From IMG/VR virus record IMGVR_UViG_3300045988_161285, positions 1-60,176 of that record: DNA of 60,176 bases. The stretch is one strand, 5' to 3'. This stretch comes from a virus. Below are positions 1-42,047 of this stretch, piece after piece (positions within the stretch are counted from its first letter, which is position 1; every line of letters starts with the position of its first letter). The position numbers and the translations under genes are program-made. A model generated the notes under the pieces. That model had not been told where the DNA came from. It saw only the letters and a program-made list of their open reading frames with translations, and did not search any database.

Positions 1-72
1 TATCAAAACCAGAATGCCTATAACGGGAAGAAGGGAAATACAATCAATTAGAAGTTGTTGTTTGTCATTCAT
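1..72 (-). CDS. 5' end (24 codons) of an outward-reading membrane-protein gene, cut by the window edge
   Basis: ATG at 72-70 (rc), MNDKQQLLIDCISLLPVIGILVLI, hydrophobic; near-identical paralogous start at 60105-60176. Confidence 0.5.
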   Translation of the reverse strand, partial: MNDKQQLLIDCISLLPVIGILVLI

Positions 73-285
73 AATACAATAGGGATTAGAATACAAATAT
101 AAACATTATTTTGTATAAAACAACCCTCTATAATAGGAATTTCTGACAAAAAAGAAACGAACTATTATTACAATATAAACGAAAAGAGCGACTATTCAGC
201 CGCCCCTTTCGCATTAACGAGATAGACATAAAAGTATCTCAAATCATCTCTGTAGATGGATGCCGAACCACTACAGAGTTTCCAT

Positions 286-612
286 TCATTCTACAGTTTC
301 TCCTTTTTCATTCAGAAGTACCGTCACTTCTTCAGTGGATTGATTTTCCTTGGTGATGGTCAACACAACCTTATAAATCTTACCGGTTTCTTTCTCGGAA
401 ATGAAAGCCTCCTTTATTACAGCCCCCTCATAGTCCTTAGCCAAGACATTCATAACTGCCTGAGGCAAGTCTTTTACTTCCACTTTTGTGAACTCATCCT
501 GAGGATTTTGCTGAGTTTGCTCTACAGACTGTGTTCCAGAAACCACGTAAGCAAATGCTACTGAACTGCCTAATCCCATAACCATTGCTAATGCTACCAA
601 TACTTTTTTCAT
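286..612 (-). CDS. small secreted PepSY-like/BLIP-like domain protein
   Basis: ATG at 612; signal peptide MKKVLVALAMVMGLGSSVAFA; 108 aa; about three quarters identical to paralog at 59144-59470. Confidence 0.6.
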   Translation of the reverse strand: MKKVLVALAMVMGLGSSVAFAYVVSGTQSVEQTQQNPQDEFTKVEVKDLPQAVMNVLAKDYEGAVIKEAFISEKETGKIYKVVLTITKENQSTEEVTVLLNEKGETVE

Positions 613-741
613 AATCGTAAGTTTTAAGTAAATAAATATAGTTTTTGTATTAACTATAGGACAAACGATATGCCATGATGTACATCAGTACATAATACAT
701 TATACATCAGCATATTATAAAAACAAGAAGGAATAATTATG

Positions 742-770
742 TGTGGAAATATGTGGAACTGAGTACCACA
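742..770. promoter_or_regulatory. cluster of TGTGGAA / TACCACA boxes upstream of the PepSY-like gene
   Basis: TGTGGAA at 742-748 and 752-758, inverted TACCACA at 764-770; equivalent cluster at 58959-59006 in the right arm. Confidence 0.4.
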
Positions 771-1358
771 CATGGGGAATAATTACACAATATGGATTAC
801 TTAATTCCTGGGAAATGGAACAAGGCAGCTGAATAAGCTGCCCCTTCTATAAAACAGTCAACAAACAGACATTCACTAATCAAATGGCATAAACATAAGC
901 ATAAATAACCCGGCTAAAGCCATAGCAAATGCAATTACCATACAAAACTCTTTTTTCATAACTAATAATTTGGTTAAACACATATTTCCATCGCACGTTC
1001 AACAACGCACTCTTGTCTCCGACAAAACCTCAGCCGCATAAAAGCTGAGGTCCAGCATGTTCCTTTCAATATATACAATCAATTAGAGCACACAATGTTG
1101 GAACATTCTGCAAATCCAGTATAAAGAAACTGCAATGGCTGAAAGAAGGACTATACTAACACTATATACCGGATTCTACTATAAAGACAACTGCTTTTCT
1201 GAAATTCCCTACGTGACTTGAGGGAATTTTATAAAAGAAAGGGCCCAAATGAAAAAGCCCCGACGAAAGCCGGGACATGTCACACACAATAGATATGAAT
1301 TATTACTGAAATCTGAATATAAAGGCAGCTTATTCAGCTACCCATCTAACACATAATA

Positions 1359-1859
1359 CTATTTTAATAGAGATATTATCTCATTAGGAGTATAAATTAC
1401 ATGGTCAGCATCTGATCCTAACAATGACTCTTCATTAGCACTTCCCCATAAACAAGCAACACTTTCAATTCCCGCTCCATTTGAAGCTATCACATCACTA
1501 ACCTCATCCCCAAAAGAAATAACATCTTCCGCACTTAAACCTAATTGAGTCAATGCTAAATTCATTCCTTCCGAGTTTGGCTTTTGTAATTTAACATCAT
1601 GATAAGCAACAACTGTATCAAAAGGTATATTGAAATGATTTAATACTTTCTTTACATAAACAGAAGGGGCTTTACTCACAATTCCAACTTTTAAATCATT
1701 ATCTCTTATAAATTCAAAAACTTTATCATAAGCTTCATATAATACAAATTTAGAAATCAGTGAATAAACTATATTCCAATCGCGAGCACTTCTATACGAC
1801 TTAGCAATATTTGAGTCTACTAAGGTTTGATCAAGATCAAAAATTATACCTTTCTTCAT
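1359..1859 (-). CDS. HAD-superfamily phosphatase
   Basis: motif I DLDQT near N-terminus, VSKAP, K...GDEVSD; last gene of a 4-gene operon. Confidence 0.75.
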   Translation of the reverse strand: MKKGIIFDLDQTLVDSNIAKSYRSARDWNIVYSLISKFVLYEAYDKVFEFIRDNDLKVGIVSKAPSVYVKKVLNHFNIPFDTVVAYHDVKLQKPNSEGMNLALTQLGLSAEDVISFGDEVSDVIASNGAGIESVACLWGSANEESLLGSDADHVIYTPNEIISLLK

Positions 1860-1870
1860 AAATATACATA

Positions 1871-2860
1871 TTAGAATAATAGCTGTGATTCATAATCATG
1901 TTTATACTGAAGTTGTTTTCCTGACTGCAAGAATTTGTATAATATATTCGCTTCACGTAATTGAAGAGCTCCTTTTCTGATTAAATAACTATTTCCACAA
2001 ACATTCTCCATTTCATTCACACGCTGATCTTTATAAAAGACTGCTGCCAAAATTTTATTATTATCAATGGTCGTTTGGACAGCATGCATTGTACCACCCT
2101 TCATCCCAGTTTGAATTACAATTGTAGCAATAGCTAAACCCGCTTGTAACCTATCTCTTTCTACAAAGTTCGTTTTAAAAGCAGGAGAGCCATAAAAATA
2201 CTCGGATAGTAGTACTCCACCTTTCTCTACTATTTCTATAGCAATGCTTTCATGTGCCTTTGGAGAAATAGTATGAAGACCATGAGCTAATATAGCTGTA
2301 GTTGTTCCATTTTTTACAGATAAGGCAGCTTTATGAGCAATAGTATCACATCCTAATGCTAAGCCACTAACAATATTAAATCCTTTCTCTGCAAAATATT
2401 CTCCATAATATTGCCCTGCTTCTTCTCCTTCTATTGTAGGGTGTCTTGTCCCAATTATTGCAATTGATTTCTTATTATTAATACTATTAATATCACCCTT
2501 ATAATTAAGTACTATTGGAGCTACATCTTTAAATCTATTATTACTATATGATTTCAGTTCTTTAAGTTGTATCGGAAACAAATTATCATATTGAGAAATA
2601 ATATGTACGCCGTTATTCAAAGATTCATCTAAAACTCTTTGAGCTTCATCAATAGCTTTCTGAAAAAGATCTGGAGTCAACTCTTTGTTTAATCTTATAT
2701 AATGAGTTTTTATGCACTCCTGTACATATGACACAATGTCATTATCAGAAAATAGGTTACATTCTATCATAGCTTTAGCTACCACCTCCACAGTCTTAGG
2801 GCCAAAACCTGGTAAATGTTTCAGTTTAATAATTAATTCCGTTTCTTTAGATATGCTCAT
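1871..2860 (-). CDS. DprA/Smf-like DNA-processing protein (ShosA-like)
   Basis: LKHLPGFGPKT HhH-like N-terminus; Rossmann core IAIIGTRHPT, IVSGLALGCDTIAH, ERDRLQAGL, KGGTMH; ATG 2860 preferred over TTG 2866. Confidence 0.8.
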   Translation of the reverse strand: MSISKETELIIKLKHLPGFGPKTVEVVAKAMIECNLFSDNDIVSYVQECIKTHYIRLNKELTPDLFQKAIDEAQRVLDESLNNGVHIISQYDNLFPIQLKELKSYSNNRFKDVAPIVLNYKGDINSINNKKSIAIIGTRHPTIEGEEAGQYYGEYFAEKGFNIVSGLALGCDTIAHKAALSVKNGTTTAILAHGLHTISPKAHESIAIEIVEKGGVLLSEYFYGSPAFKTNFVERDRLQAGLAIATIVIQTGMKGGTMHAVQTTIDNNKILAAVFYKDQRVNEMENVCGNSYLIRKGALQLREANILYKFLQSGKQLQYKHDYESQLLF

Positions 2861-2866
2861 ATTCAA

Positions 2867-3460
2867 TTATAAATTTTCGTTAGCATGCTCATCATGAATT
2901 GTTCTCGCAATACAAAATAAATAAAAAGTTGCGTTAGGCCATTCTTCTTTTAATGTTTTTATTATTTCAGCAGATGTGACGCAAGCTGTTGAAATATCAT
3001 CGACAATCAACACAGATTTATTATTAAGATCTTGTTTTACCTCTATTTCAAAAACCCCCTCCATTTCTACCCTCCTAGAAGCTAAATCCGGTAATCTATG
3101 TAGAGGAGTAGTTACCCTTTTTTTCTTTAACAAACGCGGTAAATATGCCGCAGAAACAGCATCTGCAATAGCAATAGCTAAAGGTCTTAATTTTGCAGAT
3201 TTCAATGCTGTTGTTTCAGAACTTCCTAATGTTCTAATAACATAATCAAACTTTAAGTTTGCGCTATTTATGGCTTCAATGCATTTATCGATAATATACT
3301 GGTCATTTTCATCATTCTTGTTCCATTTAAATTGCTTAATCATGCTAGTCCACTTGGTTGTATCTGTATATCCTTTAGGAATATAATATACTATATGGTA
3401 TGCCTCTTCTAGACCTGCGTCTGTATATTGAGGATCATTTGATAAACTTTTTAATTTCAT
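2867..3460 (-). CDS. phosphoribosyltransferase-fold protein (ComF/ShosT-like), diverged copy
   Basis: PRPP-loop-like VLIVDDISTACVT (Gly missing); paralogous layout to the upstream gene. Confidence 0.6.
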   Translation of the reverse strand: MKLKSLSNDPQYTDAGLEEAYHIVYYIPKGYTDTTKWTSMIKQFKWNKNDENDQYIIDKCIEAINSANLKFDYVIRTLGSSETTALKSAKLRPLAIAIADAVSAAYLPRLLKKKRVTTPLHRLPDLASRRVEMEGVFEIEVKQDLNNKSVLIVDDISTACVTSAEIIKTLKEEWPNATFYLFCIARTIHDEHANENL

Positions 3461-3463
3461 ACA

Positions 3464-4075
3464 TTACTCTCTTGTTGTTTTTGATAAAAAAATACCAGTG
3501 ACACTTTTAGCACCAGTTTCTAATAGTTTAGCAGAGACTTGTTTAAAGGAGGAGCCTGATGTAATAACATCGTCAAACAGCAATACATTTTTACCTTTAT
3601 ACTGTTCTGAGTTTATTGTTAGATATGGTGTTATATTTTTATTACTAGTACCTTTCGTTTCTTCATGTTCAATTGCAGAAAGGTAGTTAAAACCGTTTTC
3701 AATATTTAAAACTTTAGCTACTATACTACAAAAATATTCAAAACGCTTATTTGTCTTTTCCAGTTTTGAAGCAGGTATTATCATCAAACAAGTGTTTTCA
3801 AGATTAACTCCTTCCTTTTTAATACTTTCCACTATTATGTTAGCAGCAGATTCAACAGCAGCTTTATGTCCATCTTTAAAACTATATATAAAATTACGAA
3901 TAGTCTTTATATTATTATCTACATCATTTCCTATTCCAGATAAAGGGTAATAATCATGAATTACATAGTACTTACATTCTTTAAAAGCCATGCTTTTTTC
4001 TTTTCTTATTCGAACTAAGCATGAATCACGATGACGGAATTCTTTAATTTTCTTATCATATTTAAGAGTGTACAT
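3464..4075 (-). CDS. type I phosphoribosyltransferase-fold protein (ComF/ShosT-like)
   Basis: PRPP-binding loop VLLFDDVITSGSS; first gene behind the promoter box at 4105-4112. Confidence 0.7.
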   Translation of the reverse strand: MYTLKYDKKIKEFRHRDSCLVRIRKEKSMAFKECKYYVIHDYYPLSGIGNDVDNNIKTIRNFIYSFKDGHKAAVESAANIIVESIKKEGVNLENTCLMIIPASKLEKTNKRFEYFCSIVAKVLNIENGFNYLSAIEHEETKGTSNKNITPYLTINSEQYKGKNVLLFDDVITSGSSFKQVSAKLLETGAKSVTGIFLSKTTRE

Positions 4076-4104
4076 AGCATTTTATGTTTAAGGATTAGTG
4101 ATTT

Positions 4105-4112
4105 CAAAAATA
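4105..4112 (-). promoter_or_regulatory. Bacteroidota-type -7 box (TATTTTTG on minus strand)
   Basis: caaaaata on plus strand, 30 nt upstream of ATG 4075. Confidence 0.45.
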
Positions 4113-4276
4113 AAAAATAAATATCAAAAAAAACAGTTTTAGAAGAATGTTTATAAACATAAAGCCAAACTTCATTACATTTGGTCGAACTCCATTCATA
4201 ATTGGAGAGTCTATATTAAGTGTTACAACAGCCATTCATGTCTGTACGCAATGTATTAAATGTAAATGAGACAAGT

Positions 4277-4310
4277 AAAAAAGTTGCCCCGAATCAGAGA
4301 GACGGGGCAA
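4277..4310 (-). terminator. rho-independent terminator after the XRE-M78 gene
   Basis: 8-bp stem ttgccccg/cggggcaa followed by a U-run on the minus strand (A-run 4277-4283). Confidence 0.65.
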
Positions 4311-4338
4311 TTATTCATGTATGAGAAAGCTAGAACTA

Positions 4339-5409
4339 CTACAACAAAATTTTTAACCTATAATTCTTTCTATTTAACATAGTACACAAGTTCTGAAAAT
4401 CAGCAACAGACAACCCAACAAGATTTGATAATTCCTCTTCAGAATAATCTAAATCATAAAGATGAGCATCAATCATCTTTTTCAATAACACTGGCTGATC
4501 TATATCGACTTTTTCTGTTTCTTCTTTTCTTTGTCCAGTCTTACTTAGAGTCATCATGTAATATTTATAACTATTATCGCTCAGAGAACCAATTTCTCTA
4601 GCTCGATGTAATATAGCAGCCTTAGACATTTTCCAATACATTTTTAGGTTGCCTAAATCGCCATATCTAATATTAAATAAAGAACGCTTACATTCTACAA
4701 ATGGTAAATTGAATTCTGCAGAAAACTCATTTGCCTGCCTTTCTTTTTCTTGATCTTCGACATCGTCAAAAGGTACGCGAAGGTGCATGACTAAGTGACC
4801 TAATTCATGTCCGATAGTAAACCTTTTCCTATCGTTTGGCATATTGGCATTTACAAAGATAACAGGTTGAGATTTTTTCGTAAACTTAGTGACTCCGTCA
4901 AACTTGTCATTATCAATATCTAGAAAGATGACTATTACCCCATTCTTTTCTAAAACATTAACGATTCGTTCTAATGGTCCCCGCTGAATACCAAGATATT
5001 CTCTTAATTTAAAAGCAATAACTGATGGGGTATTACTCCCTGATACATCGCAATGAGGGATATTCAACTCAGGAACATCTACAGACTCCATTAATTCATC
5101 TATTACCATATTAAGAATGTCAACTTTGGCCTCGAGTATAGATAATTGTTTTTGAGACATACTTACTCGCTTCCGATAAAATAGAGAACCGTTTGAACTA
5201 GCCTGGCTTTCCTTATAAAAAAAACATAGAGGATAGTCCAGTACCTTTGAGATTTCCGCAAGCAATGAATCAGATATAGATAATAACCCTTTTTCTATTC
5301 TGGAAAGATTTCCTTGAGTCAACCCTTTTACTTCTTTTGATAATCCAGACTGAGTCATACCTCTGCTTTCACGCGCTAAAGTAATATTTCGATAATTAAT
5401 AGTGTTCAT
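4339..5409 (-). CDS. XRE-family HTH fused to ImmA/IrrE (M78) zinc metallopeptidase
   Basis: N-terminal HTH MTQSGLSKEVKGLTQGNLSRIEKG; HEXXH site IGHELGHLVMH. Confidence 0.8.
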   Translation of the reverse strand: MNTINYRNITLARESRGMTQSGLSKEVKGLTQGNLSRIEKGLLSISDSLLAEISKVLDYPLCFFYKESQASSNGSLFYRKRVSMSQKQLSILEAKVDILNMVIDELMESVDVPELNIPHCDVSGSNTPSVIAFKLREYLGIQRGPLERIVNVLEKNGVIVIFLDIDNDKFDGVTKFTKKSQPVIFVNANMPNDRKRFTIGHELGHLVMHLRVPFDDVEDQEKERQANEFSAEFNLPFVECKRSLFNIRYGDLGNLKMYWKMSKAAILHRAREIGSLSDNSYKYYMMTLSKTGQRKEETEKVDIDQPVLLKKMIDAHLYDLDYSEEELSNLVGLSVADFQNLCTMLNRKNYRLKILL

Positions 5410-7367: not shown

Positions 7368-7709
7368 TTAATACCCATTTTGCGGTTCTCTATCACCGCA
7401 CTTCTTTCTCTCACACCGTTTCAGTGCCAGTTCCAGTTTCAAGTCAGAATTAGCCTCCTTCAGTGTAAATAACTCATCCTGCACCTTACGGAGCCGGTCT
7501 GTCTGCTCCACAAACCGCTGTTCCTTCACCGAAAGCTGCTTCTGCAGGAACTCGTTGTACTCCCGTAATGCCTTGAACTCCTCGACATCAGCATGTGCGT
7601 CCTCAATACGCGCATTGGTCTTGCGCGACATCCACCACTTAATAAGCTGCTTGATGCCCTCGATGCCACCGAGGGCGGTCACCAGCATAACCCAATCATT
7701 CATATCCAT
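7368..7709 (-). CDS. lysis-cassette membrane protein (holin-like, tentative)
   Basis: one N-terminal hydrophobic helix WVMLVTALGGIEGI, then coiled coil; immediately upstream of the endolysin. Confidence 0.4.
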   Translation of the reverse strand: MDMNDWVMLVTALGGIEGIKQLIKWWMSRKTNARIEDAHADVEEFKALREYNEFLQKQLSVKEQRFVEQTDRLRKVQDELFTLKEANSDLKLELALKRCERKKCGDREPQNGY

Positions 7710-7762
7710 TTCACCAATTCATTTAATAATCTACTAATAACCATTTTTTGTCCGACACCGCA

Positions 7763-7770
7763 CAAATGTA
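7763..7770 (-). promoter_or_regulatory. -7 box TACATTTG (minus strand) ahead of the lysis cassette
   Basis: caaatgta on plus strand, ~55 nt upstream of ATG 7709. Confidence 0.3.
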
Positions 7771-7866
7771 CATCAGGCAAAATCAAACAAGTTGTTGAAT
7801 TACAATTTTCCACTGACATTCCGTGACAGCAAAAGTAATTGCTTCCACAACCTTGAAAAAGGACAT

Positions 7867-7909
7867 AAAAAAAGAGCTCGATGACAACGTAAGTTGCCAC
7901 TAAGCTCTT
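7867..7909 (-). terminator. rho-independent terminator after the invertase gene
   Basis: stem aagagct/agctctt with inner stem, followed on the minus strand by UUUUUUU. Confidence 0.6.
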
Positions 7910-7967
7910 GGTATTTATATACATTTCTACAAGCAAATATAGGAATTTATATTTGAAATCCGATTAC

Positions 7968-8561
7968 TTATTGCATCCTTTTTAAATGGTCATCCAATGT
8001 TTTAGGGTTACATTTAAGCTTACGACATATGGCTGCCTTTGAATAACCATATTCGAGCATAGTTCTAATGAGAGGTTCCTTTCCTGTAAGCTTGTAATGC
8101 GTGTTTTTATCCCCCTTTTTCCGACCAAGTCGTATTCCTGCAGCTTTTCTGTAAGCAAGGGCCTCCTTGGTTCGCTGACTGATCAAATCACGTTCAATCT
8201 CAGCGGATAAACCGAAAGCGAATGCCAATACCTTACTGTTGATGTTATTACCTAATTCGTAACGTTCCTTGACAGTAAGAACGCAAGTCTCCTTAATCAT
8301 ACAGAGGTGAAGCATTGACATAATACCCATCAGGTTTCTTCCTAATCGGCTGATTTCTGTTATGATTAGAGTGTCGCCTTTCTTCATCCTCTTGAGAAGC
8401 GGACCTAATTTCCTATCGTTAGCAATTTTGGTACCGGAAACCTTCTCGGACACCCATTTATCTATTACAAGTCCTTTTTCCGTTGCAAATTTCTGGACTT
8501 CGAACCTTTGGTTCTCGACAGTCTGTTTGTCTGTCGACACACGAATATATGCGTAAACCAT
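7968..8561 (-). CDS. small serine recombinase, DNA invertase (Hin/Gin/Cin family)
   Basis: AYIRVSTDKQ catalytic-Ser motif, GDTLIITEISRLGRN, C-terminal HTH; true start ATG 8561 (MVYAYIRV). Confidence 0.9.
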   Translation of the reverse strand: MVYAYIRVSTDKQTVENQRFEVQKFATEKGLVIDKWVSEKVSGTKIANDRKLGPLLKRMKKGDTLIITEISRLGRNLMGIMSMLHLCMIKETCVLTVKERYELGNNINSKVLAFAFGLSAEIERDLISQRTKEALAYRKAAGIRLGRKKGDKNTHYKLTGKEPLIRTMLEYGYSKAAICRKLKCNPKTLDDHLKRMQ

Positions 8562-8615
8562 TTTTGCGGTGAAGGTAGTCTTATTCAACAGCCTAACCAA
8601 AAAGGGTATTCTAAT

Positions 8616-8639
8616 GACCCTCAAAAGTACAAGGGATAT
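8616..8639 (+). repeat. invertase crossover site S1
   Basis: GACCCTCAAAAGTACAAGGGATAT; putative central AA at 8631-8632. Confidence 0.75.
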
Positions 8640-8979
8640 GATAGAAAAGGTTAATATAACAGATGCCAATGTGGTTGAGTTAATCAGAGAAAAACTGCCT
8701 GCTGCAACAGAAGCAAACAAGGGACTTATGCAAGCTAATGGATTTGAACAAGGTAAGAATATATTAAATGAAGAATACGATAGTAAAATCAGTGCCGGTG
8801 TATATTCATCTACTGATAATTTAAATAATATGGGCACTGGAATTTTATTAGCGCTAAGAGGGTTTCAATACACAGCCCATTTATATATTACCAACTCTGC
8901 AAGAATATATATTAAAACCATTCGTAGCAATGGAGAGGTTTTGAAAGATTGGACGTTAATAAATAATACCAAAACATAA
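8638..8979 (+). CDS. silent tail-fibre tip / receptor-binding cassette A (113 aa)
   Basis: ATG 8638, MIEKVNITDANV...; only the first ~8 aa are shared with the other cassettes. Confidence 0.6.
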   Translation: MIEKVNITDANVVELIREKLPAATEANKGLMQANGFEQGKNILNEEYDSKISAGVYSSTDNLNNMGTGILLALRGFQYTAHLYITNSARIYIKTIRSNGEVLKDWTLINNTKT

Positions 8980-9017
8980 GAGACTTTTGGAGTATCCATT
9001 TTCCTACCCTATCCTTT

Positions 9018-9041
9018 GACCCTCAAAAGTACAAGGGATAT
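9018..9041 (+). repeat. invertase crossover site S2
   Basis: GACCCTCAAAAGTACAAGGGATAT, identical to S1. Confidence 0.75.
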
Positions 9042-9417
9042 GATAGAGAAGATTGATATTACAGACACAAGCGTGATAAATGCCATCACAAGGCAGCTCA
9101 ATATAAAGAATATCAGGAATGAGATGTTCCCTACCTGGAGACTGACATTGCAACCGGGGGAGGAATACGATTTGAAGACATCCTATTATGGAATGTACAT
9201 GGTTCGATGGGCTGATGCTGGGGCGACAGCCTTGATAATGATCGGCGCCGGAGTATCGGCCAATATATTGTTGAATAATGGTGCGAGTATTTCCACGGAC
9301 TTCACAGAGGTCGGCAAGATTATTTTGAATAAGAAGGCTGTCAATGGCACTGTATTTGTTAAGAACAACGGAAATAAAGAAACGGGAATAAATGTCATGC
9401 AGATAACTAATTATTAG
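9040..9417 (+). CDS. silent cassette B (125 aa)
   Basis: ATG 9040, MIEKIDITDTSV...; followed by hairpin gcagggg/cccctgc. Confidence 0.6.
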   Translation: MIEKIDITDTSVINAITRQLNIKNIRNEMFPTWRLTLQPGEEYDLKTSYYGMYMVRWADAGATALIMIGAGVSANILLNNGASISTDFTEVGKIILNKKAVNGTVFVKNNGNKETGINVMQITNY

Positions 9418-9526
9418 CAGGGGTTATTCCCCTGCCTTCCTTACTCGTTCTCGATATAAATTGCTCAGTAACTTTTACTTTTATTGTGCTCATTGCTGTT
9501 TATTGCTTATTTCCGTCATATCCTTT

Positions 9527-9549
9527 GACCCTCAAAAGTACAAAGGTAT
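9527..9549 (+). repeat. invertase crossover site S3
   Basis: GACCCTCAAAAGTACAAAGGTAT; right half diverged. Confidence 0.7.
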
Positions 9550-9952
9550 GATGGAAAAGATTAAGTTGTCAGAAGTGGAGAGAGGTTTGCCTAACGGAAT
9601 AATTGCTCAGATACGCGGGCTGAACACCCAGGGAGAGGGCATTTTAGAACCGTTGGATTCTTTTTTGAGTGACATATTATGTGCAAGAGGCTCCTTTATA
9701 TATAACAGTCAAGAAGTTATAGATAACCTCAAGAAACCTGGTGTGTATAAGCATGGGGACCCCATAATTGGTACGGGGACTTCCTATGGCGCGCATGGTG
9801 TGCTCTTGGTCTTGTATATAGATGAATATACAATACATATTGATTTTCCTGCAAGGAAAAACTTTATCCTTGTAAGAAAGTGTGTCACTGCCAACGGGAA
9901 AGATGAGTGGTCTTCATGGAAATATATATCGTTAACAGACATATCAACGTAA
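9548..9952 (+). CDS. silent cassette C (134 aa)
   Basis: ATG 9548, MMEKIKLSEVERG... Confidence 0.6.
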   Translation: MMEKIKLSEVERGLPNGIIAQIRGLNTQGEGILEPLDSFLSDILCARGSFIYNSQEVIDNLKKPGVYKHGDPIIGTGTSYGAHGVLLVLYIDEYTIHIDFPARKNFILVRKCVTANGKDEWSSWKYISLTDIST

Positions 9953-9988
9953 TAGGCTTTGCAGGACGGTCAGAGTGAAAAGCACCAA

Positions 9989-10424
9989 CTCTTACTTAAA
10001 ACTGTGGAATTATTCCACAATACCGTGGAGCACTCCACAATATTCCACAGTATTGTTAAAAGAGGATTTTGCCTTATATTAATGAAAATGAATGCAATAT
10101 TGTTGCGCAATCATTCTGGCATCAATTTTGTACTATGGTTTATGCCTTAAAAGTTATCAGTAACTTGTAGTTGTTATGGTTAGACAATAGGTATTAGTTG
10201 CATTAAGGTTTAAAGACATTTTGTTCATATTGATTTTCATTCGGAAACTCTCTTTGTTTGGCATTGCATCCCGGTCTGTGAAGTATCGGGATGTTTTTAC
10301 TTAGATGGTTGCTGTTTCCGACTAAATACTGTAACTTTGTATAGTTAGCCGATATACTACTTAACTAATACTATTTTATTCTTTGGAATAATGAAAGTAT
10401 TCTCAGCCTGTGAGGGTCGGATGC
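9989..10424 (+). repeat. ~430-bp noncoding element, direct-repeat partner at 54732-55158
   Basis: alignable by eye over the whole length (roughly 85% identity); box cluster 10003-10049, conserved core, terminator hairpin. Confidence 0.8.
10267..10298 (+). terminator. rho-independent terminator inside the repeated element
   Basis: catcccgg ... tcgggatg stem followed by TTTTT; conserved at 55008-55040. Confidence 0.6.
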
Positions 10425-10691
10425 TTTTGGTGGGTAATGCCGCCAATTATTCCAGTTAAGTGTTTAGGTTTTATGCAGTTTGCCCCATGAACAAACTGCA
10501 TTGACAAGAAGTATTCTACCCGTTCAGACCGCGATGGTTTGAGCGGGCTTTTATTTGGCATTCTGATTGATTTTTATTAATTTTACCGCATGTCTTTTTA
10601 GGCATAGTAAGTAGTTCTTGTTCTATAAAGTAAAGTCCGAAGAGTTGGAATTTATAGAACTTATACTTAATCAATTAGTTAATACAGACTT

Positions 10692-10723
10692 TCCGTCTTG
10701 TCCGTGAGGATAGGACGGATTTT
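10692..10723 (+). terminator. 12-bp hairpin with GTGA loop plus T-run
   Basis: tccgtcttgtcc GTGA ggataggacgga tttt. Confidence 0.55.
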
Positions 10724-10749
10724 AATTATAGGCAGAAAATTGGAAAGAC

Positions 10750-11331
10750 TTATGAAATGGTAATTTTATTTTCCTTGGAATGAGAGCCAATAACATATTC
10801 CGATGTTACCGCTTCCATGGAGAGAATTTGGTTCTTGTTTCCATTAACATTTGATATGGCATACAACATAAGATAGCCGCCAGAATGGTTTGGGTATTTA
10901 CTGTTTAAATAAAAACTGAAAGTATTGTCATTATCAACGTAGCATACGATATAGTTACATATTGTTGAACTGTAATTTTCTTTGGATAGACGACTGTCTG
11001 CGAATTTGTTCTCCCAATACTTTATATTAACAGAGAAATTCTCATTACTCATATTGTTTTGGTTAAAACCTATAGAGCATTGCAACCTTATGGCACGATA
11101 TTGTGCCGTACTTATTGCTGTTCTAATTATAAAGCCTTTTACATTTCCAGCTGAAGGAGTGGAAAATAACTTTGGAAATAAGCCTCCTATTAATGTATTC
11201 ATCACATTTGCCAAATCACTTTTCTTTATTTTCCCCTGACTACCATCTGCCAGTTCCACATACACATAGTTTGTATCAGTCACTATCTGACACTGGTTCA
11301 TTACTTGGCTTATGTTTACCTTCTCTATCAT
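10750..11331 (-). CDS. cassette D, currently in the expression locus (193 aa from MIEK; 213 aa if started at ATG 11391)
   Basis: MIEKVNISQVMNQ...; lies 33 nt downstream of the last constant tail-fibre gene with no terminator between. Confidence 0.65.
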   Translation of the reverse strand: MIEKVNISQVMNQCQIVTDTNYVYVELADGSQGKIKKSDLANVMNTLIGGLFPKLFSTPSAGNVKGFIIRTAISTAQYRAIRLQCSIGFNQNNMSNENFSVNIKYWENKFADSRLSKENYSSTICNYIVCYVDNDNTFSFYLNSKYPNHSGGYLMLYAISNVNGNKNQILSMEAVTSEYVIGSHSKENKITIS

Positions 11332-11355
11332 ATATCCCTTGTACTTTTGAGGGTC
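11332..11355 (-). repeat. invertase crossover site S4 (inverted relative to S1-S3)
   Basis: rc reads GACCCTCAAAAGTACAAGGGATAT; followed by ATATG, 2 nt longer than at S1/S2. Confidence 0.75.
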
Positions 11356-11424
11356 GTCATTTTCGGATAAAAACGACAACCGGTTTAACATTTTGTTTTT
11401 ATTCTCGTTTTGTTTAATATTTTG

Positions 11425-12345
11425 CTAATTAATTGGGTCTTCGTAAGTACGTTCTTCCAATTCCGCATAAGAATAGGCTACGTCCGTTCCTTTAGTTAGA
11501 ATCCATATTGCACCTAATGACATGAACTCATATACTCCGCTTTTTGATATAGCGATCTTATTGCAATAATGATATTCATTATTTTCAAATGTAAGTTCAT
11601 TAAATCCATCTGTTGTTACAACTGAAGTATAACCATAAGTGCTTCCCATTGCTGCATTATATATTGTCAACGAGATTTTCATCCCATTATATTGGACAGC
11701 CTCTGGAAGCATATACATACTCTGGGAAATTCGGTTTGGACGGCCATTCCGAAATTCAGAGCCAAAAGCCGGATTCAAAAAGAAATACCCCTCGTTTGCA
11801 CGGAAATCATGCATCCGAACAAATGATGCATTGGCAATAATTGTCCCCTCAACTTCAACATTACGTCCCTTGAAGCTCCCAGTCAGAAAATCAAGGAGTA
11901 AGTTTGGTCGAAACTTGTTTGCCGGATTCATCGGGTCATTGTAATTAAAATCTTTATATCCGCCTACCGTTTCTACAGCAGAGCCATCGGCTTTTATTCC
12001 GTATTGCGAAAACATATACTGCCCATAGAACACCGCACTTGCCAGCTTGGCGAAATTCGCCATCAGTACCTCGATAAAGGCATACTGTATCTTGTCCATC
12101 ACTACCCATGTCGCCTTACTGCCGTTTGCCGCATAGTCTGTCTTGGGGTTGACACCCTTAAATGTGCCCTCCTTAGCCAACACGTAGTATTGACCTTCAC
12201 ACAGTACCATCGGTGTCGATAGAGCCGTACGGGTGTAGCCTGTGGATGCGGAATATTCTCCAGCCGGATAGACCAGCGGACCGATCGGTCCCTGCTGGAG
12301 ATACTTCACTTCTCCCGTCTTGCTTGCCAACGCTTTCTTTGCCAT
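11425..12345 (-). CDS. tail-fibre / host-specificity protein (last constant gene)
   Basis: start at internal ATG 12345 (MAKKAL...), 1 nt after the upstream stop; the longer ORF to 12531 overlaps in another frame. Confidence 0.5.
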   Translation of the reverse strand: MAKKALASKTGEVKYLQQGPIGPLVYPAGEYSASTGYTRTALSTPMVLCEGQYYVLAKEGTFKGVNPKTDYAANGSKATWVVMDKIQYAFIEVLMANFAKLASAVFYGQYMFSQYGIKADGSAVETVGGYKDFNYNDPMNPANKFRPNLLLDFLTGSFKGRNVEVEGTIIANASFVRMHDFRANEGYFFLNPAFGSEFRNGRPNRISQSMYMLPEAVQYNGMKISLTIYNAAMGSTYGYTSVVTTDGFNELTFENNEYHYCNKIAISKSGVYEFMSLGAIWILTKGTDVAYSYAELEERTYEDPIN

Positions 12346-12346
12346 A

Positions 12347-13399
12347 TCATGCTGCCGTTGAGATTGTCCATGAAACATTGCCGCCTGCCTGCTGGCACAT
12401 AGCTTCAGTGCAGGTACCGCTTGCCGCAGCCACATTCGCCGTAGCCGGATTGAGAATGACCCCTGCCGAATCCATAAAGACAAAATAGAACAGCATATTC
12501 TTTGCCTTCGTGGTCTGTCCCCGCTTGACAAGGATAGGCGTATAAGTCACCGAACCTCCGGAACCGGAAACAATCGTCTCATCCTCGGGATTGGGATTAG
12601 TTATGATGTCGTAGGGGTCTGACAAGTCCATCACCGTCTGCGTGTCAAGGCCTATCAGATTGCCGCCCTGCGACACCTCCACCTTAAAGATGCCCGTAGT
12701 GTCAACCAGGCTGTCCGTAACGGTCAGACTCTTGCCGGTCTGGTCGACGAGTGTCTGCCAGGCACCGTTAACCATCCTGGACCACTTGTAGGTTAGTCCG
12801 GAGGTGATCTCTGACGCTCCACGTCTCGCCATTGCCGTGAGAACGACACTGCCTCCCTTCTCACGGATGGCAAAGTATTTGTCATCTCCGGAAACGATGG
12901 TCACCACGTTCTGGTTGCCCACACCCTTGGTGATAGGGATGCTGTAAACGAACTGCACCTCATCCGACACGTTGCCCACGGTCACCGTAGCCACCGCCTT
13001 GACGCTGCAGCTCGCACCGGACGACGCCTTCACCAGGTTCTTCACGATCTGAAGCCCGTAATAGTTCGTAGTGCCCGCCTTGTAGGGGATGTACTTGAAA
13101 TGCCCCGTCTCGCCGCCGAACGTGTTCGTGGAAACGTTGGATGTGAAGCTTATCAACACGTCATTGAAATACCACCTGATGGAAGAGGGCACCACACCCC
13201 CCTCAGCCACCCGTGAGGAGGTGAGAAGGAAGGAGAGCGTCGGCTTCATCGTGGTGAAGTCGGGGGCTATGTTTGTCGGAGCACCCGATTCACCATCATA
13301 CTCTTGATAGAGGTCGCCTTTGTCGCACATAATCGCTGGCATGTAAACGCCAGACTTTTGCGAAAAGATTACCTGCCCGACCTTACTCGCTACGCTCAT
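12347..13399 (-). CDS. tail-fibre-associated virion protein (repeat/Ig-like, tentative)
   Basis: 350 aa, Thr/Ser/Val/Gly-rich beta-type composition; inside the GC-rich block. Confidence 0.45.
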   Translation of the reverse strand: MSVASKVGQVIFSQKSGVYMPAIMCDKGDLYQEYDGESGAPTNIAPDFTTMKPTLSFLLTSSRVAEGGVVPSSIRWYFNDVLISFTSNVSTNTFGGETGHFKYIPYKAGTTNYYGLQIVKNLVKASSGASCSVKAVATVTVGNVSDEVQFVYSIPITKGVGNQNVVTIVSGDDKYFAIREKGGSVVLTAMARRGASEITSGLTYKWSRMVNGAWQTLVDQTGKSLTVTDSLVDTTGIFKVEVSQGGNLIGLDTQTVMDLSDPYDIITNPNPEDETIVSGSGGSVTYTPILVKRGQTTKAKNMLFYFVFMDSAGVILNPATANVAAASGTCTEAMCQQAGGNVSWTISTAA

Positions 13400-13667
13400 C
13401 GGTCACCTCCTCCCCGTCTTTATCCATGAAACCCTCCGGAGTGGCGACCTCCACCGGATCTTCCACGCCGTCTATCTCACCCTTGGCCTGCTGCGGGGAA
13501 AGGCACACGCCCCCGACTACTGCCGCCCGGTCGAATACCGTATCGCCGGGAAAGCCTGCCACATCGGCCTGCCATAACAGCACATTGCCGTCGGCAGTGC
13601 TGTTGCGGATTCCTGCCACTCCCAGCTTGTCCGCAACCTCTCTCGTCACTTTGATATAAAATGCCAT
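13383..13667 (-). CDS. small acidic virion-module protein
   Basis: 94 aa, ATG 13667, 17-nt overlap with the downstream gene. Confidence 0.45.
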   Translation of the reverse strand: MAFYIKVTREVADKLGVAGIRNSTADGNVLLWQADVAGFPGDTVFDRAAVVGGVCLSPQQAKGEIDGVEDPVEVATPEGFMDKDGEEVTDERSE

Positions 13668-13685
13668 ACTGCTATCGATTAATGG

Positions 13686-14843
13686 TTAAACATCCCTTTT
13701 CCTTGCCACTATAAACTTACCGCTGTCATCCGTCACGTACTTGCCGTCAGATGTCACCACCGCCGCATACGGGCCCTTGTCAATCACCTTCAGCTGTAGC
13801 ATCATGCCGTCGGTGCATGGGATGGAGGGCGAGTACCCGGCAGCGGCCAGCACGTATGAGGAGGCGCCGGCCGCCTTCGTGTACCATTCGCACTCAAGGA
13901 TGGCCTGGGGATTGGGGACAATCCCTGCCGTATCACGGATGACCGGTTTCGGGTATATCATCTTGGTTCCGTCGGCCACCTGCTGCGGAAATCCCTCCCA
14001 GTCAATCTCGATGCTGGGAATACGCCTGCGGATGGTGGTGGAGACATAGTCTATGTCACTGTCCGGCTTGGATGAAGGAGCACCGTCCTTCGAGTACGAT
14101 GCTTTCACGACGTAGGTCTGTTCGTGGCCGATATAGTCCCGGTCTATGGTAAGCACGTTCTTTGTCAGTGATACGAACTCCCAGTCATTGTCGCCGTTAC
14201 CGTCGGTAATCTGCTCCAGTGCGCCCGTATTCAGCTTCCGATAGAAGAAGAACTTGCACTTGTTGGTTGCTGTGACATCTACATCACCGACAAGCAGTCT
14301 GGCGGTGATGGCCTGCCTGGCAATGTCCCGACACGGGTTCCAGTCAAGTGCCGACGGAGAGTCGACCATCAGCTTAGGTTGCGCCTCGCTGCCGTCAACG
14401 GCGCGGACAAGACGGCTGAAACGGTAGACGTGCGTCTGTCCAGTACGCTTCACATCGACATACTCGGCGTAGAACTCCAGTGTTACCGGACTGCCGGGAA
14501 CGGTATTCTTTTTCACTTGTATCTTACCCTTCTCGGCTCCGGTCTCGGTAATGACATAGCTCTTGTTGGCAGATGTAATCAATGTCCGCACACCGTTCAA
14601 GCGCTCGTACCACTTCATGTTGACCAATGACGCGTTGACCGCACCCACCTTGACCACCGCATCCGGGTCGGTGGCATTGCACCGGGGGAACAGCGTCAGG
14701 GGGGTAAGCGTGTAGTCCGGAGTGTACTCGGCCTTGTCAGCCTGGTACACCTGCACGTCCGGCACGCTGCCGACAACCTCTATCCCGCCGCTGGTCTGGA
14801 GAGGGCGGTAGTTGACCTCTATCTTCTTCTGTATAGTCTGCAT
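13686..14843 (-). CDS. tail/baseplate structural protein (unassigned)
   Basis: 385 aa ORF in the co-directional late operon, GC-rich block. Confidence 0.5.
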   Translation of the reverse strand: MQTIQKKIEVNYRPLQTSGGIEVVGSVPDVQVYQADKAEYTPDYTLTPLTLFPRCNATDPDAVVKVGAVNASLVNMKWYERLNGVRTLITSANKSYVITETGAEKGKIQVKKNTVPGSPVTLEFYAEYVDVKRTGQTHVYRFSRLVRAVDGSEAQPKLMVDSPSALDWNPCRDIARQAITARLLVGDVDVTATNKCKFFFYRKLNTGALEQITDGNGDNDWEFVSLTKNVLTIDRDYIGHEQTYVVKASYSKDGAPSSKPDSDIDYVSTTIRRRIPSIEIDWEGFPQQVADGTKMIYPKPVIRDTAGIVPNPQAILECEWYTKAAGASSYVLAAAGYSPSIPCTDGMMLQLKVIDKGPYAAVVTSDGKYVTDDSGKFIVARKRDV

Positions 14844-14845
14844 AA

Positions 14846-16276
14846 TTAGAAAGTTATATAATTCATTGTCTCATAATTGTTCTGCCCGTCACGCAGCAAT
14901 ACCCGTGCGATGAACTTGCACCCGGTCATGTTCATATAGTCGGGGCCGAGGTCGTTGACCGTCAGCGGCAGTGACTTGCCGGTTTCCGCGTGTGCGACCG
15001 CCCAGGCGTTGTCCTCGGTGACGTTGCCCGTATCGCGCGTCCACTCCACATCACTGTCAAGGATATGCGCCGTAACGTCACGGTTGTACAGCTCACCGGT
15101 AATGGTGAGGGTGGTCGCAAAACGCTCCGCATCGAAGTACCAGCCATTGGAGCTTTCTATATCGATGCTGAAATCCGGATTGCCCTCGACCATTGCCCAG
15201 CCCGCTGCTCCGTACTTCGGTTCGTCGGTAGTGCCGGAAACAAGACACATCCACTTGCATCCGTAGTGCCACACGGTATCGTACATCATCACACGTACGG
15301 TCTCGGTCTGTGCCTCGCGGTCGGCTTGGTAGGGTTCTGCTCCGGTGGCGGTCTCCATGTTCCACTCTCCGCGGTCGTTGGCGATGCGGGGCAATACGCC
15401 TTGGAAGTCGATGCGGTGGATGTCCTGCGCTACCAATCCCCGGACGTAGATATAAGAGTGCAGGTAGTTGATGGGCAGGTTGTCGAACAGAGACAGATGC
15501 TTCAGCCTGCCGACGATCACCGAATAGTTGCTTTCCTCAAGGACGGGTTTTGTGACCCCGTTAAGCATGCAGATACAATGCTCACGGGATGACAGATACC
15601 AATAACCCTGCCGTTCAGTATCAACCGGGTTGCCACGGTGTGATAATATCATCAACGGCTCAGGAGGATAATTCTTGCCACCCGGCACCTCGCTATCAGG
15701 GTACATCACAGCGTTGATCGTATTGGCTGAGATGTCAACATGCAAGACACGTAGCCAGGAGGTATAATACTTGCCGCCACCTGATGCAAGGTCATTGACA
15801 ACACCATATACAACATCGTTTTCTGCCAGTGCAGTAAAGTCGTTATCCCACCGTTTCTTCATCTTCAGGCTGTATGTGCCGTCTTCAAGCTGCGATACAC
15901 TTTCGATGGTACCAGACTCGGAGAAGGAATAGTCGCTCTCCATGGCGGAGAGACGGTTGAAGATAAGCTCAAGGACGGTAAGGCTGTCGCGGACCTCGAG
16001 GCGGGACAGCTGCATACGGCCGTCAGGGAATATTCCGGCACCCTTGCCCGCGACCATCGAGTCGATAAACTCGCCGAACTTCAACAGAAAATTTGTGCCG
16101 TCAGCTCGATCTTTCCTCAGAAAAATCTTCTCCAATTCTTCAGGGGAGTATTTGGATAACAGATTCAAGATTCCGACCAGCGTGCGTCCAACCCTCTCTG
16201 CGGTATTCTCTCCCTCAGAAGAGGCGTTCCTTATCTGTAGAGCAAGTTTCCTTAATATGTCAAGTGTATCAGGCAT
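14846..16276 (-). CDS. tail/baseplate structural protein (unassigned)
   Basis: 476 aa ORF, 2-nt gap to the next gene. Confidence 0.5.
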   Translation of the reverse strand: MPDTLDILRKLALQIRNASSEGENTAERVGRTLVGILNLLSKYSPEELEKIFLRKDRADGTNFLLKFGEFIDSMVAGKGAGIFPDGRMQLSRLEVRDSLTVLELIFNRLSAMESDYSFSESGTIESVSQLEDGTYSLKMKKRWDNDFTALAENDVVYGVVNDLASGGGKYYTSWLRVLHVDISANTINAVMYPDSEVPGGKNYPPEPLMILSHRGNPVDTERQGYWYLSSREHCICMLNGVTKPVLEESNYSVIVGRLKHLSLFDNLPINYLHSYIYVRGLVAQDIHRIDFQGVLPRIANDRGEWNMETATGAEPYQADREAQTETVRVMMYDTVWHYGCKWMCLVSGTTDEPKYGAAGWAMVEGNPDFSIDIESSNGWYFDAERFATTLTITGELYNRDVTAHILDSDVEWTRDTGNVTEDNAWAVAHAETGKSLPLTVNDLGPDYMNMTGCKFIARVLLRDGQNNYETMNYITF

Positions 16277-35619: not shown

Positions 35620-35943
35620 TCAATTCATTTTCCTTTTTCTATTCCGCTCGCTCTGTACCTCTGCCATACACATCTTGCACCATGACGCTTTCAGATGGTA
35701 TTCCTTACCGTTACGACGGGCTGTCCTATCGAAGAACCGGGATAATGGAAGTGCTCTACCACAACGGGTGCACAGTTTACGCTCCACTCCGTCAACGACC
35801 ACCCGGTTACGGGGTTTCCTCCTCACGATTTCACATGGTCCGCATTCGGACGCACCGTACCTCCTGCAATAGGCAAGTGAGTGCTTGCCGCACTTGGCGA
35901 AGGAGGTGCAATCCGAACGGGGAACTATCTGGTGAATGTTCAT
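35620..35943 (-). CDS. Cys-rich zinc-finger protein
   Basis: multiple CxxC pairs (CGPC, CTRC, CKMC); 4-nt overlap with the upstream helicase-MTase gene. Confidence 0.5.
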   Translation of the reverse strand: MNIHQIVPRSDCTSFAKCGKHSLAYCRRYGASECGPCEIVRRKPRNRVVVDGVERKLCTRCGRALPLSRFFDRTARRNGKEYHLKASWCKMCMAEVQSERNRKRKMN

Positions 35944-41685: not shown

Positions 41686-42047
41686 AATAGGTAAGAATTG
41701 ACTTCATTCATAAACTCAGTAAGAGAATGGCATACCACATATTTATTTCGGAATTTTTCAGCCTCTCTCTGCCATCTTATCTGCTCCTCGCTTTGTTTCC
41801 CTTTCGGTCTCTTCATTTCGATGCAAAGAGCGGAAAATCCTTTCTTAGGTACAAGCAGTATCAAATCGGAAACACCCCTTACACTTCCCTCGTACTTCAT
41901 TTGTGCTCCAGTCCTGGCATCACGCTTTCCACCGTTGGGAACGGCGAACAACATAAGACTCAAAGACGGGTATTGAATCCGGAACCAAGTCAGACAGCTA
42001 TGCTGTATCTGACTTTCCGATTGCGGTGTAGTCTGTCTTTTTCTCAT
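41682..42047 (-). CDS. VRR-NUC domain nuclease
   Basis: GVSDLILL...LCIEMKRPKGKQSEEQ (D...ExK core). Confidence 0.75.
   Translation of the reverse strand: MRKRQTTPQSESQIQHSCLTWFRIQYPSLSLMLFAVPNGGKRDARTGAQMKYEGSVRGVSDLILLVPKKGFSALCIEMKRPKGKQSEEQIRWQREAEKFRNKYVVCHSLTEFMNEVNSYLL

Follow-up and report, generated by a model that had tools for sequence, protein, structure and literature searches.

The DNA analysed here is the viral record IMGVR_UViG_3300045988_161285 of IMG/VR, positions 1-60,176 (60,176 nucleotides, nt), referred to below as the window. Our subject is a locus within it that lies between a constant tail-fibre gene, which we call K1, and the gene of a small serine recombinase. Four short genes, here named cassettes A to D, occupy this interval, and each of them follows a copy of the same 17-nt core, GACCCTCAAAAGTACAA. 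Judged from comparison of the sequence with related loci in public collections, the locus is very probably a programmed multiple-inversion switch that acts on tail-fibre tip genes.

Organization of the locus

Read along the minus strand, the genes follow one another as tail genes, K1, site S4 with cassette D, a spacer of 0.8 kilobases (kb), cassettes C, B and A in reverse orientation with their own sites, the invertase, and finally the lysis genes, which include a GH108 endolysin. Two genes upstream of K1 match the PHROG family 3267, annotated as "tail protein." The features of the locus, with protein lengths in amino acids (aa), are the following:

7968..8561, minus strand: invertase, a predicted Mpi-family small serine recombinase; 197 aa, catalytic Ser9 in YIRVSTDKQ
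8605..8641, plus strand: site S1, adjacent to the invertase, core 8616-8632; the fixed invertase-side flank ...GGTATTCTAAT forms its left arm
8638..8979, plus strand: cassette A (family F2); 113 aa, predicted N-terminal helix and C-terminal knob domain
9007..9043, plus strand: site S2, core 9018-9034; a full internal site with arms CCCTATCCTTTG and CAAGGGATATGA and a 13-nt asymmetric spacer
9040..9417, plus strand: cassette B (family F1); 125 aa
9516..9552, plus strand: site S3, core 9527-9543
9548..9952, plus strand: cassette C (family F4); 134 aa, with the knob-type motif DEWSSWKYISLT at its end
9953..10749, no strand: tail-to-tail junction, non-coding; C trailer of about 200 nt and D trailer of about 570 nt
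10750..11331, minus strand: cassette D (family F6); 193 aa, here in the slot directly behind K1
11330..11366, minus strand: site S4, adjacent to K1, core 11339-11355 in the opposite orientation; the fixed flank ...TCCGAAAATGAC forms its left arm
11356..11424, minus strand: fixed flank between K1 and S4; contains an ATG at 11391
11425..12345, minus strand: K1, the constant tail-fibre gene; 306 aa

An earlier note on this DNA had described much of this layout. Its four 17-nt cores, three in one orientation and one in the opposite orientation, were reproduced at their exact positions, as were the four cassette open reading frames (ORFs) of 113, 125, 134 and 193 aa with their start motifs (MIEKVNI in A and D, MIEKIDI in B, MMEKIKL in C), beyond which the sequences diverge. 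It had also reported no terminator between K1 and D, and we likewise found no terminator-like site on the minus strand there. Three of its measurements needed adjustment. The recombinase spans 7968-8561 as described, but encodes 197 aa plus a stop codon instead of 198 aa; the cores do lie just upstream of the ATG, at a distance of 4-7 nt and not 5-8 nt; and the 33-nt gap behind K1 applies from the K1 stop codon (11425) to the in-frame ATG at 11391, whereas the start codon of the MIEK reading of D lies 93 nt from that stop.

Arrangements of the cassettes in related loci

We compiled a comparative set of 164 loci with 451 sites from three collections. A search of IMG/VR with the core yielded 74 loci; the exact invertase protein, looked up in public assemblies, yielded 10 loci on contigs of 200-460 kb; and metagenome contigs from human gut assemblies, searched with the K1-side flank plus the core, yielded 79. 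Two criteria served to class each site: the flank upstream of it, which could belong to K1, to the invertase or to the end of another cassette, and the family of the ORF downstream.

All 164 loci share one order, with zero exceptions: the K1 flank, plus-oriented sites, a single tail-to-tail junction, minus-oriented sites, and the invertase flank. A plus site followed by an ORF is always found at the K1 flank, and a minus site, pointing away from the invertase, at the invertase flank; the invertase gene itself always occupies the same end of the array. The earlier note had proposed a search of related phages for the core; the 74 IMG/VR loci answer it with the orientation rule intact, and the comparative data exclude the possibility it had raised that the core is a mere conserved translation start region in non-inverting relatives.

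The window itself is arranged as K1 D> / <C <B <A, where the angle brackets give the direction of each cassette and the slash marks the tail-to-tail junction. A 232-kb contig (L157; ENA ERZ24860299) shows a different arrangement, K1 A> B> D> / <C, in an almost identical context: it equals the window at 100% over 8,615 nt on the invertase side and at 99.98% over 5,206 nt on the K1 side, and all four of its cassettes, A to D, match those of the window at 100%. Locus L004, arranged as K1 A> B> C> / <D, is the product of a single inversion between S1 and S4 (cassettes A to C 100% and D 99.8% identical). Similarly, L025, in which K1 is joined to C, corresponds to inversion between S3 and S4, and L063 to inversion between S2 and S4. 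The junction of K1 with A is present in L004 and L157, with cassettes A 100% identical, while that of K1 with B is present in L063, L022 and L065 and involves a B allele of 83-84% DNA identity that is common in other loci. All three junctions anticipated earlier, in which recombination of S4 with S1, S2 or S3 places A, B or C behind K1, are found in public assemblies. The idea of a switch between cassettes stands, but not its limitation to four states, since inversions between internal sites also occur and raise the number to 12; L162, for instance, reads D> / <C <A <B.

These arrangements agree with a simple simulation in which any plus site may recombine with any minus site. For n cassettes, 2(n-1)! 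arrangements are reachable, which for four cassettes amounts to 12 states among the 72 that obey the orientation rule, and all seven arrangements observed for the set {A,B,C,D} are within those 12. The simulation further predicts that cassettes meeting tail to tail never separate. Twelve cassette sets were seen in at least two arrangements, and the tail-to-tail pair is constant within all twelve; five such pairs account for 78 of 85 junctions. Cassette families recur in the slot behind K1, in the slot next to the invertase, and in the interior of the array across loci, with A seen in all three positions. Complete arrays from K1 to the invertase (n=50) contain 2-9 cassettes each. The term shufflon, which denotes at least three sites in both orientations, therefore applies to the window locus, and its relatives have up to nine sites; a single cassette set was seen in four to seven arrangements.

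The number of cassettes varies as well. In L155 (6118-7946), a flank of 6,117 nt and cassettes C and D are 100% identical to the window, and A and B are missing exactly at the sites, leaving D> / <C; cassette deletion or insertion thus also occurs at the sites.

The manner in which contigs end is informative about mixtures. Among the 74 viral loci, 31 end no more than 100 nt from a core. This and the doubled invertase flanks described next suggest that isomers coexist within single samples. In L043, L063 and L163/L164 (GCA_964084985.1 contig CAXKYG010000002.1), the invertase flank or the whole invertase-lysis module is present at both ends of the array, inverted and joined to different cassettes; such contigs are probably assemblies threaded through mixed isomers.

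Two further contigs have unusual structures. L039 (3854-5271) contains the K1 flank and a core, followed by a 5' fragment of the invertase gene, a second invertase-side flank, and then a normal site with cassettes. L036, a 5.3-kb contig, has at 1-3400 a second invertase of 70% identity and a sister-type cassette (MADKQDI...) joined to C through spacer sequence, and represents either a hybrid array or a chimeric assembly.

Structure of the recombination site and position of strand exchange

The core is present in exactly four copies in the window, three on the plus strand and one on the minus strand. No further copy was found in the window, even when three mismatches were allowed, and 0 of 100 shuffled sequences reached four core matches. 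Identity of S1 and S2 with S4 extends to 24 nt, and S1 and S2 match each other over 49 nt at 92%. Across the sites, conservation continues beyond the core into the non-coding trailers, for about 18 nt on the upstream side.

The complete site is a 12-13-12 imperfect dyad, composed of two 12-nt arms of near-perfect inverted symmetry around a 13-nt asymmetric spacer, ACCCTCAAAAGTA, which sets the direction of the site. The centre of the dyad coincides with core position 8. In internal sites, the left arm is the end of a cassette trailer, ...TC(A/C)TATCCTTTG, and the right arm is the beginning of the next cassette, CAAGGGATATGA, and includes its start codon. The left arm has diverged in the sites on the K1 side and on the invertase side.

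Polymorphisms at either end of the core locate the exchange. Core position 12 is A in 44 of 50 F3 sites, irrespective of whether K1, the invertase or another cassette lies upstream, and G in 369 of the 377 sites whose cassettes belong to neither F3 nor F8. Core position 1, in turn, is C in 5/5 sites that have one particular upstream flank and that precede at least three cassette families. As read from these polymorphisms, strand exchange falls between core positions 2 and 11, because the base at position 12 goes along with the cassette that follows and the base at position 1 with the flank that precedes; this interval agrees with the dyad centre at position 8. The layout suggested earlier by analogy with hix sites (12 nt / AA / GGGATATGATAG) would place the crossover at AA, positions 16-17, and is ruled out by the segregation at positions 1 and 12.

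Family assignment of the invertase

The recombinase has the architecture of a small serine recombinase, with an N-terminal catalytic domain and a C-terminal DNA-binding part. It matches the Pfam Resolvase domain (1.5e-31, residues 2-142) and PHROG 125, "DNA invertase" (4.7e-41); its Ser9 aligns with the catalytic serine of Gin, and about 50 residues extend C-terminally beyond the Resolvase domain. The most specific assignment comes from NCBIfam NF009949, "master DNA invertase Mpi family" (PRK13413), which is matched at 300.4 bits against a curated cutoff of 272 (E 5.8e-90). This alignment is full-length and pairs invertase residues 1-196 with positions 1-196 of the 203 in the model. Among PDB entries, Gin (4m6f, E 4e-10) matches best; it is about 30% alike and is matched over the catalytic domain only, and the distance of the invertase to Gin is about equal to its distance to the gamma-delta and Tn3 resolvases. 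By its family profile, then, the enzyme is a Bacteroides-type Mpi-family serine invertase. The earlier description as a "Hin/Gin/Cin-type serine recombinase" was correct as to serine recombinase and invertase, but not as to type.

This invertase is presumably the catalyst of the inversions. A sigma-70 promoter scan gave nothing above shuffles, the sigma-70 model being inappropriate for Bacteroides.

Cassette proteins and their predicted role

The ORFs behind all sites cluster into 21 families of small proteins (113-244 aa). Searches of cassettes A-D and of K1 against Pfam, PHROG and NCBIfam returned no family, and the only cassette family with a match is F7, which has a C-terminal Pfam Lcl_C domain. 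The N-terminal parts are put together, mosaic-like, from a small number of modules 20-40 aa long, such as MIEKVNISQVMNQ.QIVTDADYVYVE.GNSQGKIKKSDL or ..VEVIRTAMPVATQ.SKGLM, the latter a motif that we take to be typical of fibre shafts. The C-terminal domains are variable, and many of them end in W..W..I.T. The shared N-terminal modules would presumably dock the cassette proteins onto the constant fibre.

K1 itself has distant tblastn relatives among tail-fibre-like and collagen-repeat proteins of crAss-like and Bacteroides phages. Its N-terminal ~55-60% is conserved among the relatives, which align over about half of the query, and its C-terminal part is variable.

Structure prediction followed by a fold search, as the earlier note had proposed, gave cassette A a putative knob fold resembling tail-fibre tips. 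The AlphaFold model, based on 39 cassette sequences, consists of a helix and then a small beta-sandwich, with a predicted local distance difference test score (pLDDT) of 78.5 that rises to 84-92 over the knob, residues 35-110. The top Foldseek match in the PDB is the R1 pyocin fibre (6cl5; probability 1.0, template modelling score 0.48, E 0.03), and the phi812 baseplate and the phi11 receptor-binding protein are also among the fold matches. Matches to predicted viral structures, in BFVD, were better, with seven at E<=1e-3, and many of the named top matches are tail fibre, minor tail or BppU proteins. A knob profile searched against PDB sequences and Pfam returned noise only.

The profile of knob cassettes retrieves 1510 representative clusters, many of which are stand-alone proteins of 110-150 aa. 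It also finds proteins of 600-1500 aa with 4-8 tandem knob domains (P0325-P0450). The stand-alone cassettes may be excised units of such tandem-knob repeat fibres, or the reverse. We conclude, though with only moderate confidence, that detachable tips of the tail fibre are what the cassettes encode.

Expression and the junction spacer

The K1 stop codon precedes the D start codon, and there is no in-frame fusion of K1 to the cassettes. The ATG at 11391 opens a 20-codon leader that shares its reading frame with D and C, whereas A, B and most of the other cassettes lie in a different frame, and for this reason we rejected it as the true start of a "constant exon." Gene callers choose differing starts depending on the upstream flank. 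There is no terminator-like site after A, and only a weak hairpin after B. The claim that one cassette is expressed and three are silent goes beyond what the sequence establishes, as several sense cassettes may be co-transcribed. The cassette next to K1 is presumably the one mainly made, and expression of a single cassette is plausible by analogy.

The tail-to-tail junction spacer lies inside every possible invertible segment. On the plus strand it contains three strong terminator-like hairpins, at 10266-10292, 10519-10547 and 10692-10719, which are antisense to D and sense for A>B>C. The D-side ~570 nt of the spacer moves together with D in L044, L046 and the F9-F6 arrays. An Rfam search of 7700-11600 gave nothing credible, and a blastx comparison of the 0.8-kb spacer with all cassette families detected no decayed cassette. 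We also considered the spacer as a general cis enhancer and rejected this role, because the junctions in other lineages measure only ~70-120 nt.

Host, distribution and sister loci

The exact invertase protein is present in 1817 blocks of public assemblies and occurs on contigs of up to more than 1 megabase beside integrases and chromosomal genes (Lon, Tgt); the element resides as a prophage in the chromosomes of Bacteroides. Annotated genomes of Bacteroides uniformis contain close homologues of cassette A, and K1 has annotated relatives in B. caecimuris and Mediterranea. The closest GenBank phage is Bacteroides phage BS-TP3, whose terminase shares 83.6% identity with that of the window. A search of BS-TP3 found neither the invertase nor the cassettes, from which it follows that the switch is a module, and a megablast search of the region against GenBank phages gave no match. 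Scanning species-representative genomes with the core produced 80 single matches, none with a blastn match to the window; these were set aside as probably due to chance. In the openly accessible literature that we surveyed, we found no paper that gives the core sequence or describes the locus.

Sister systems with a diverged core also exist. Their cassette ORFs are preceded by ..PLKCKN and start with MAEKQDI. In the sister locus L167 (GenBank MT836212.1, 390-4341), two inverted CGTCCCTTAAAAGTACA-like sites (~393, plus; ~3690, minus) enclose an Lcl_C cassette (414-1124), an Avd-like ORF, a reverse transcriptase (1788-2993) and an inverted F9-like cassette (3159-3668), and an Mpi-type invertase of 67% identity is encoded at 3733-4341. 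A variable repeat (1014-1120) makes up the 3' end of the Lcl_C cassette and is paired with a template repeat at 1661-1767; 10/10 mismatches between the two repeats fall at template adenines. L167 is a sister switch combined with a diversity-generating retroelement (DGR) that targets the Lcl_C cassette.

Another Mpi-type recombinase, 52% identical, is encoded by Bacteroides phage B124-14 (NC_016770.1 44660-45313), which is lytic on B. fragilis; the gene lies among early/replication genes, far from the tail genes.

Elsewhere in the window, the tail genes upstream of K1 (12001-16000) have a G+C content of 0.55, compared with 0.32-0.50 in the rest, which suggests that this high-G+C block derives from another source. 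The regions 35940-40195 and 42044-43732 encode a C-5 cytosine methylase, an 838-aa fused SNF2-helicase/N6-N4 methylase and a second SNF2 helicase, and these genes look like a large anti-restriction or epigenetic module.

Alternative explanations

The main rival to a switch that selects one tip is the co-expression of forward cassettes. All sense cassettes behind K1 would then be co-transcribed with the late operon, the virion would bear a mixture or a combination of tips, and inversion would switch subsets. The structure of the cassettes as complete ORFs with their own start codons and no constant-exon fusion fits this explanation, as do the absence of a terminator-like site from A to B with only a weak hairpin after B, the frequency of arrays with 2-5 sense cassettes, and the orientation of the three strong junction hairpins, which would end an A>B>C transcript. 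However, these terminators are confined to the D trailer and are missing from the junctions in other lineages, it would seem wasteful for tips to compete on one fibre, and Rin (PMC6109161), like Mu, P1, p15B and R64, makes use only of the segment attached to the constant part. Co-expression is, in our estimation, quite possible though doubtful. The sites could also serve for gain and loss of cassettes in an integron-like manner, with recombination between direct repeats excising circles that re-enter the same or another phage. L155 without A and B is the expected product of direct recombination between the sites of C and A, arrays of 2-9 cassettes draw on at least 21 families with the same site, and near-identical cassettes stand beside different K1 alleles. 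Homologous recombination between co-infecting phages, through the 17-49 nt sites and the N-terminal modules, could nevertheless account for these findings; neither circular cassettes nor empty sites were observed, and the very stable tail-to-tail pair points to inversion as the dominant reaction. We rate this exchange function as rather unlikely. The most inclusive picture is that of an open integron-like platform, in which an Mpi-family recombinase would invert, excise and capture tip cassettes, gut Bacteroides phages would share at least 21 receptor-binding modules, several forward cassettes would be co-expressed, and some lineages would add a DGR; we put it forward only as a speculation that is more likely wrong than right by a wide measure.

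A different type of explanation denies programmed inversion and attributes the arrangements to RecA-type recombination or assembly errors at a repeated translation-start region, leaving the recombinase some other role. The repeat does overlap start codons, so that part of its conservation may be translational, B124-14 carries its Mpi-type recombinase away from the tail genes, and BS-TP3 is without the module. Yet the breakpoints fall exactly at the core in every case, 0/164 loci violate the orientation rule, the conservation ~18 nt upstream of the core lies in non-coding trailers and forms a dyad, and the invertase gene is constantly at the same end of the array. The exact repeats, moreover, are 17-24 nt long, which is too short for efficient RecA action, and assembly error is unlikely because they are far shorter than the k-mers of the isomer-bearing assemblies (k=119-141). 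We consider this explanation extremely improbable. It may also be that the switch is real and that the cassettes encode tail-fibre assembly chaperones, as Mu U/U' and lambda Tfa do, or lysogenic-conversion proteins. The proteins are small and belong to no named family, the invertible segments of Mu and P1 bear small assembly genes as well, and K1 has a variable C-terminal half of its own. Against such roles, the fold of A matches knob domains of tail fibres and receptor-binding proteins, the knob domain occurs in tandem within the 600-1500 aa proteins, and the Lcl_C domain, with which F7 proteins end, is the DGR target in L167, as is typical of ligand-binding surfaces. These features make chaperones or conversion proteins improbable.

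Several observations weigh against the programmed inversion of tip genes, which remains the explanation we prefer. The isomers come from different assemblies, and switching within one clone is inferred from them; the number of cassettes differs between near-identical prophages, L155 having only D and C. The role of the enzyme as catalyst is drawn from its adjacency and family membership, and inspection by eye of its 54-nt flank found no TTTG or TAnnTTTG promoter. The cassettes are not fused to a constant exon, and no sequence feature restricts expression to the first of them. As regards the tips, the matches of cassette A to solved folds are weak by E-value (0.03) and no sequence family was matched, and the AlphaFold model of cassette D (18 homologues), which occupies the slot behind K1 here, is unusable at a pLDDT of 40.

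Proposed mechanism and significance

In the mechanism that we propose, the Mpi-family invertase would recombine any site of one orientation with any site of the opposite orientation. Each site precedes a complete small gene and overlaps its start codon with the right arm, so that inversions would move whole genes, and every inversion would change both the gene directly behind K1 and the set of genes facing operon transcription. The cassette proteins would join a mosaic N-terminal module, presumed to dock on the fibre, to a variable C-terminal domain, predicted to be a knob in many families, A among them, and a lectin-like Lcl_C domain in the case of F7. Such a switch would most likely alter receptor specificity and be useful against Bacteroides hosts with phase-variable capsules. 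That inversion changes the host range of the phage we regard as likely.

Bacteroides species evade phages through phase-variable capsules and surface proteins, and the locus looks like the matching counter-move, a programmed variation of the phage host-recognition tip. The element is very common in human gut data, which makes it relevant to the prediction of host range, to strain-level phage-host dynamics, and to the choice and engineering of Bacteroides phages. It also adds to the Mpi family, whose members are known to flip promoters of the host, a phage-borne enzyme that would shuffle coding cassettes. With a site of 37 base pairs (bp), an enzyme of 197 aa and interchangeable cassettes of 0.4-0.8 kb, the system is compact and perhaps reusable. 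In practical terms, the orientation rule together with the invariant junction offers a simple means of recognizing such loci in assemblies, where they currently break contigs and receive inconsistent start codons from gene callers.

Comparison with known systems

The earlier note had likened the locus to Mu Gin, P1 Cin and p15B Min, and the general scheme is indeed shared. As in p15B with Min, in Mu with Gin and the G segment, and in P1 with Cin and the C segment, a phage-borne small serine invertase lies beside an invertible region that ends the tail-fibre genes. The likeness is closest in multiplicity to p15B Min, where several crossover sites generate many isomers, presumably for the purpose of host-range variation; six cassettes would give 240 states in our simulated scheme, and 240 isomers have reportedly been found for p15B. 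The differences concern the enzyme, the sites and the exchanged unit. The recombinase here is assigned to the Mpi family and not to the enteric Hin/Gin/Cin/Min group; its sites, as 12-13-12 dyads, have no sequence relationship to the cix, gix and hix sites of 26 bp; and whole genes with their own start codons are swapped, whereas Min, Gin and Cin exchange 3' exons fused to a constant part. No Fis is known in the host phylum, and an enhancer mechanism is therefore not to be assumed.

Mpi of Bacteroides fragilis, which belongs to the same protein family (NCBIfam equivalog) and acts in the same host group, is a serine recombinase that inverts segments between short inverted repeats. Encoded in the chromosome, it works in trans on 13 dispersed regions, which include seven capsular-polysaccharide promoters (PMC4747536). 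Here, in contrast, the enzyme is phage-encoded and adjacent to its array, coding cassettes take the place of promoters, and multiple sites are gathered in one locus. All four sites of the 60-kb window lie in a single 2.7-kb locus beside the invertase.

Among the shufflons of gut bacteria, the Rin system of Bifidobacterium prophages uses a tyrosine recombinase and an 11-bp site, TTCCCTAACCC, and its isomers have been seen between prophage and virion genomes (PMC6109161). Similarly to our locus, it resides in a prophage of a gut bacterium, its variable genes each follow a short asymmetric repeat, and the array is placed between a constant gene and the invertase. Rin hosts, however, are Actinobacteria, and its variable genes are the C-terminal parts of a receptor-binding protein. 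A shufflon described in a preprint on BV01-like phages of Phocaeicola vulgatus (PMC13596623, September 2026) proved active in read analysis, and a role in countering phase-variable capsules was proposed for it. Its site is TGGGAGAACT, and its three non-homologous cassettes, which occupy 1.7 kb and produce six isoforms, overlap the 3' end of the tail-fibre gene and shift its stop (PMC13596623). Both it and the present locus are recombinase-flanked, multi-cassette invertible regions at a tail-fibre gene of a temperate Bacteroidaceae phage; nevertheless, the phage of the window belongs to a different lineage, and the motif TGGGAGAACT is absent from the window.

The shufflon of R64 and other IncI plasmids, driven by Rci, likewise selects an adhesin tip, that of PilV, through multiple inversions among several sites, but it combines a tyrosine recombinase with a plasmid pilus gene and C-terminal exons. 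What distinguishes the locus described here from these systems is the combination of a recombinase that by profile belongs to the Mpi family, a 12-13-12 dyad placed over the start codon, the whole gene as the unit of exchange, and a large pool of cassettes in arrays of variable length.

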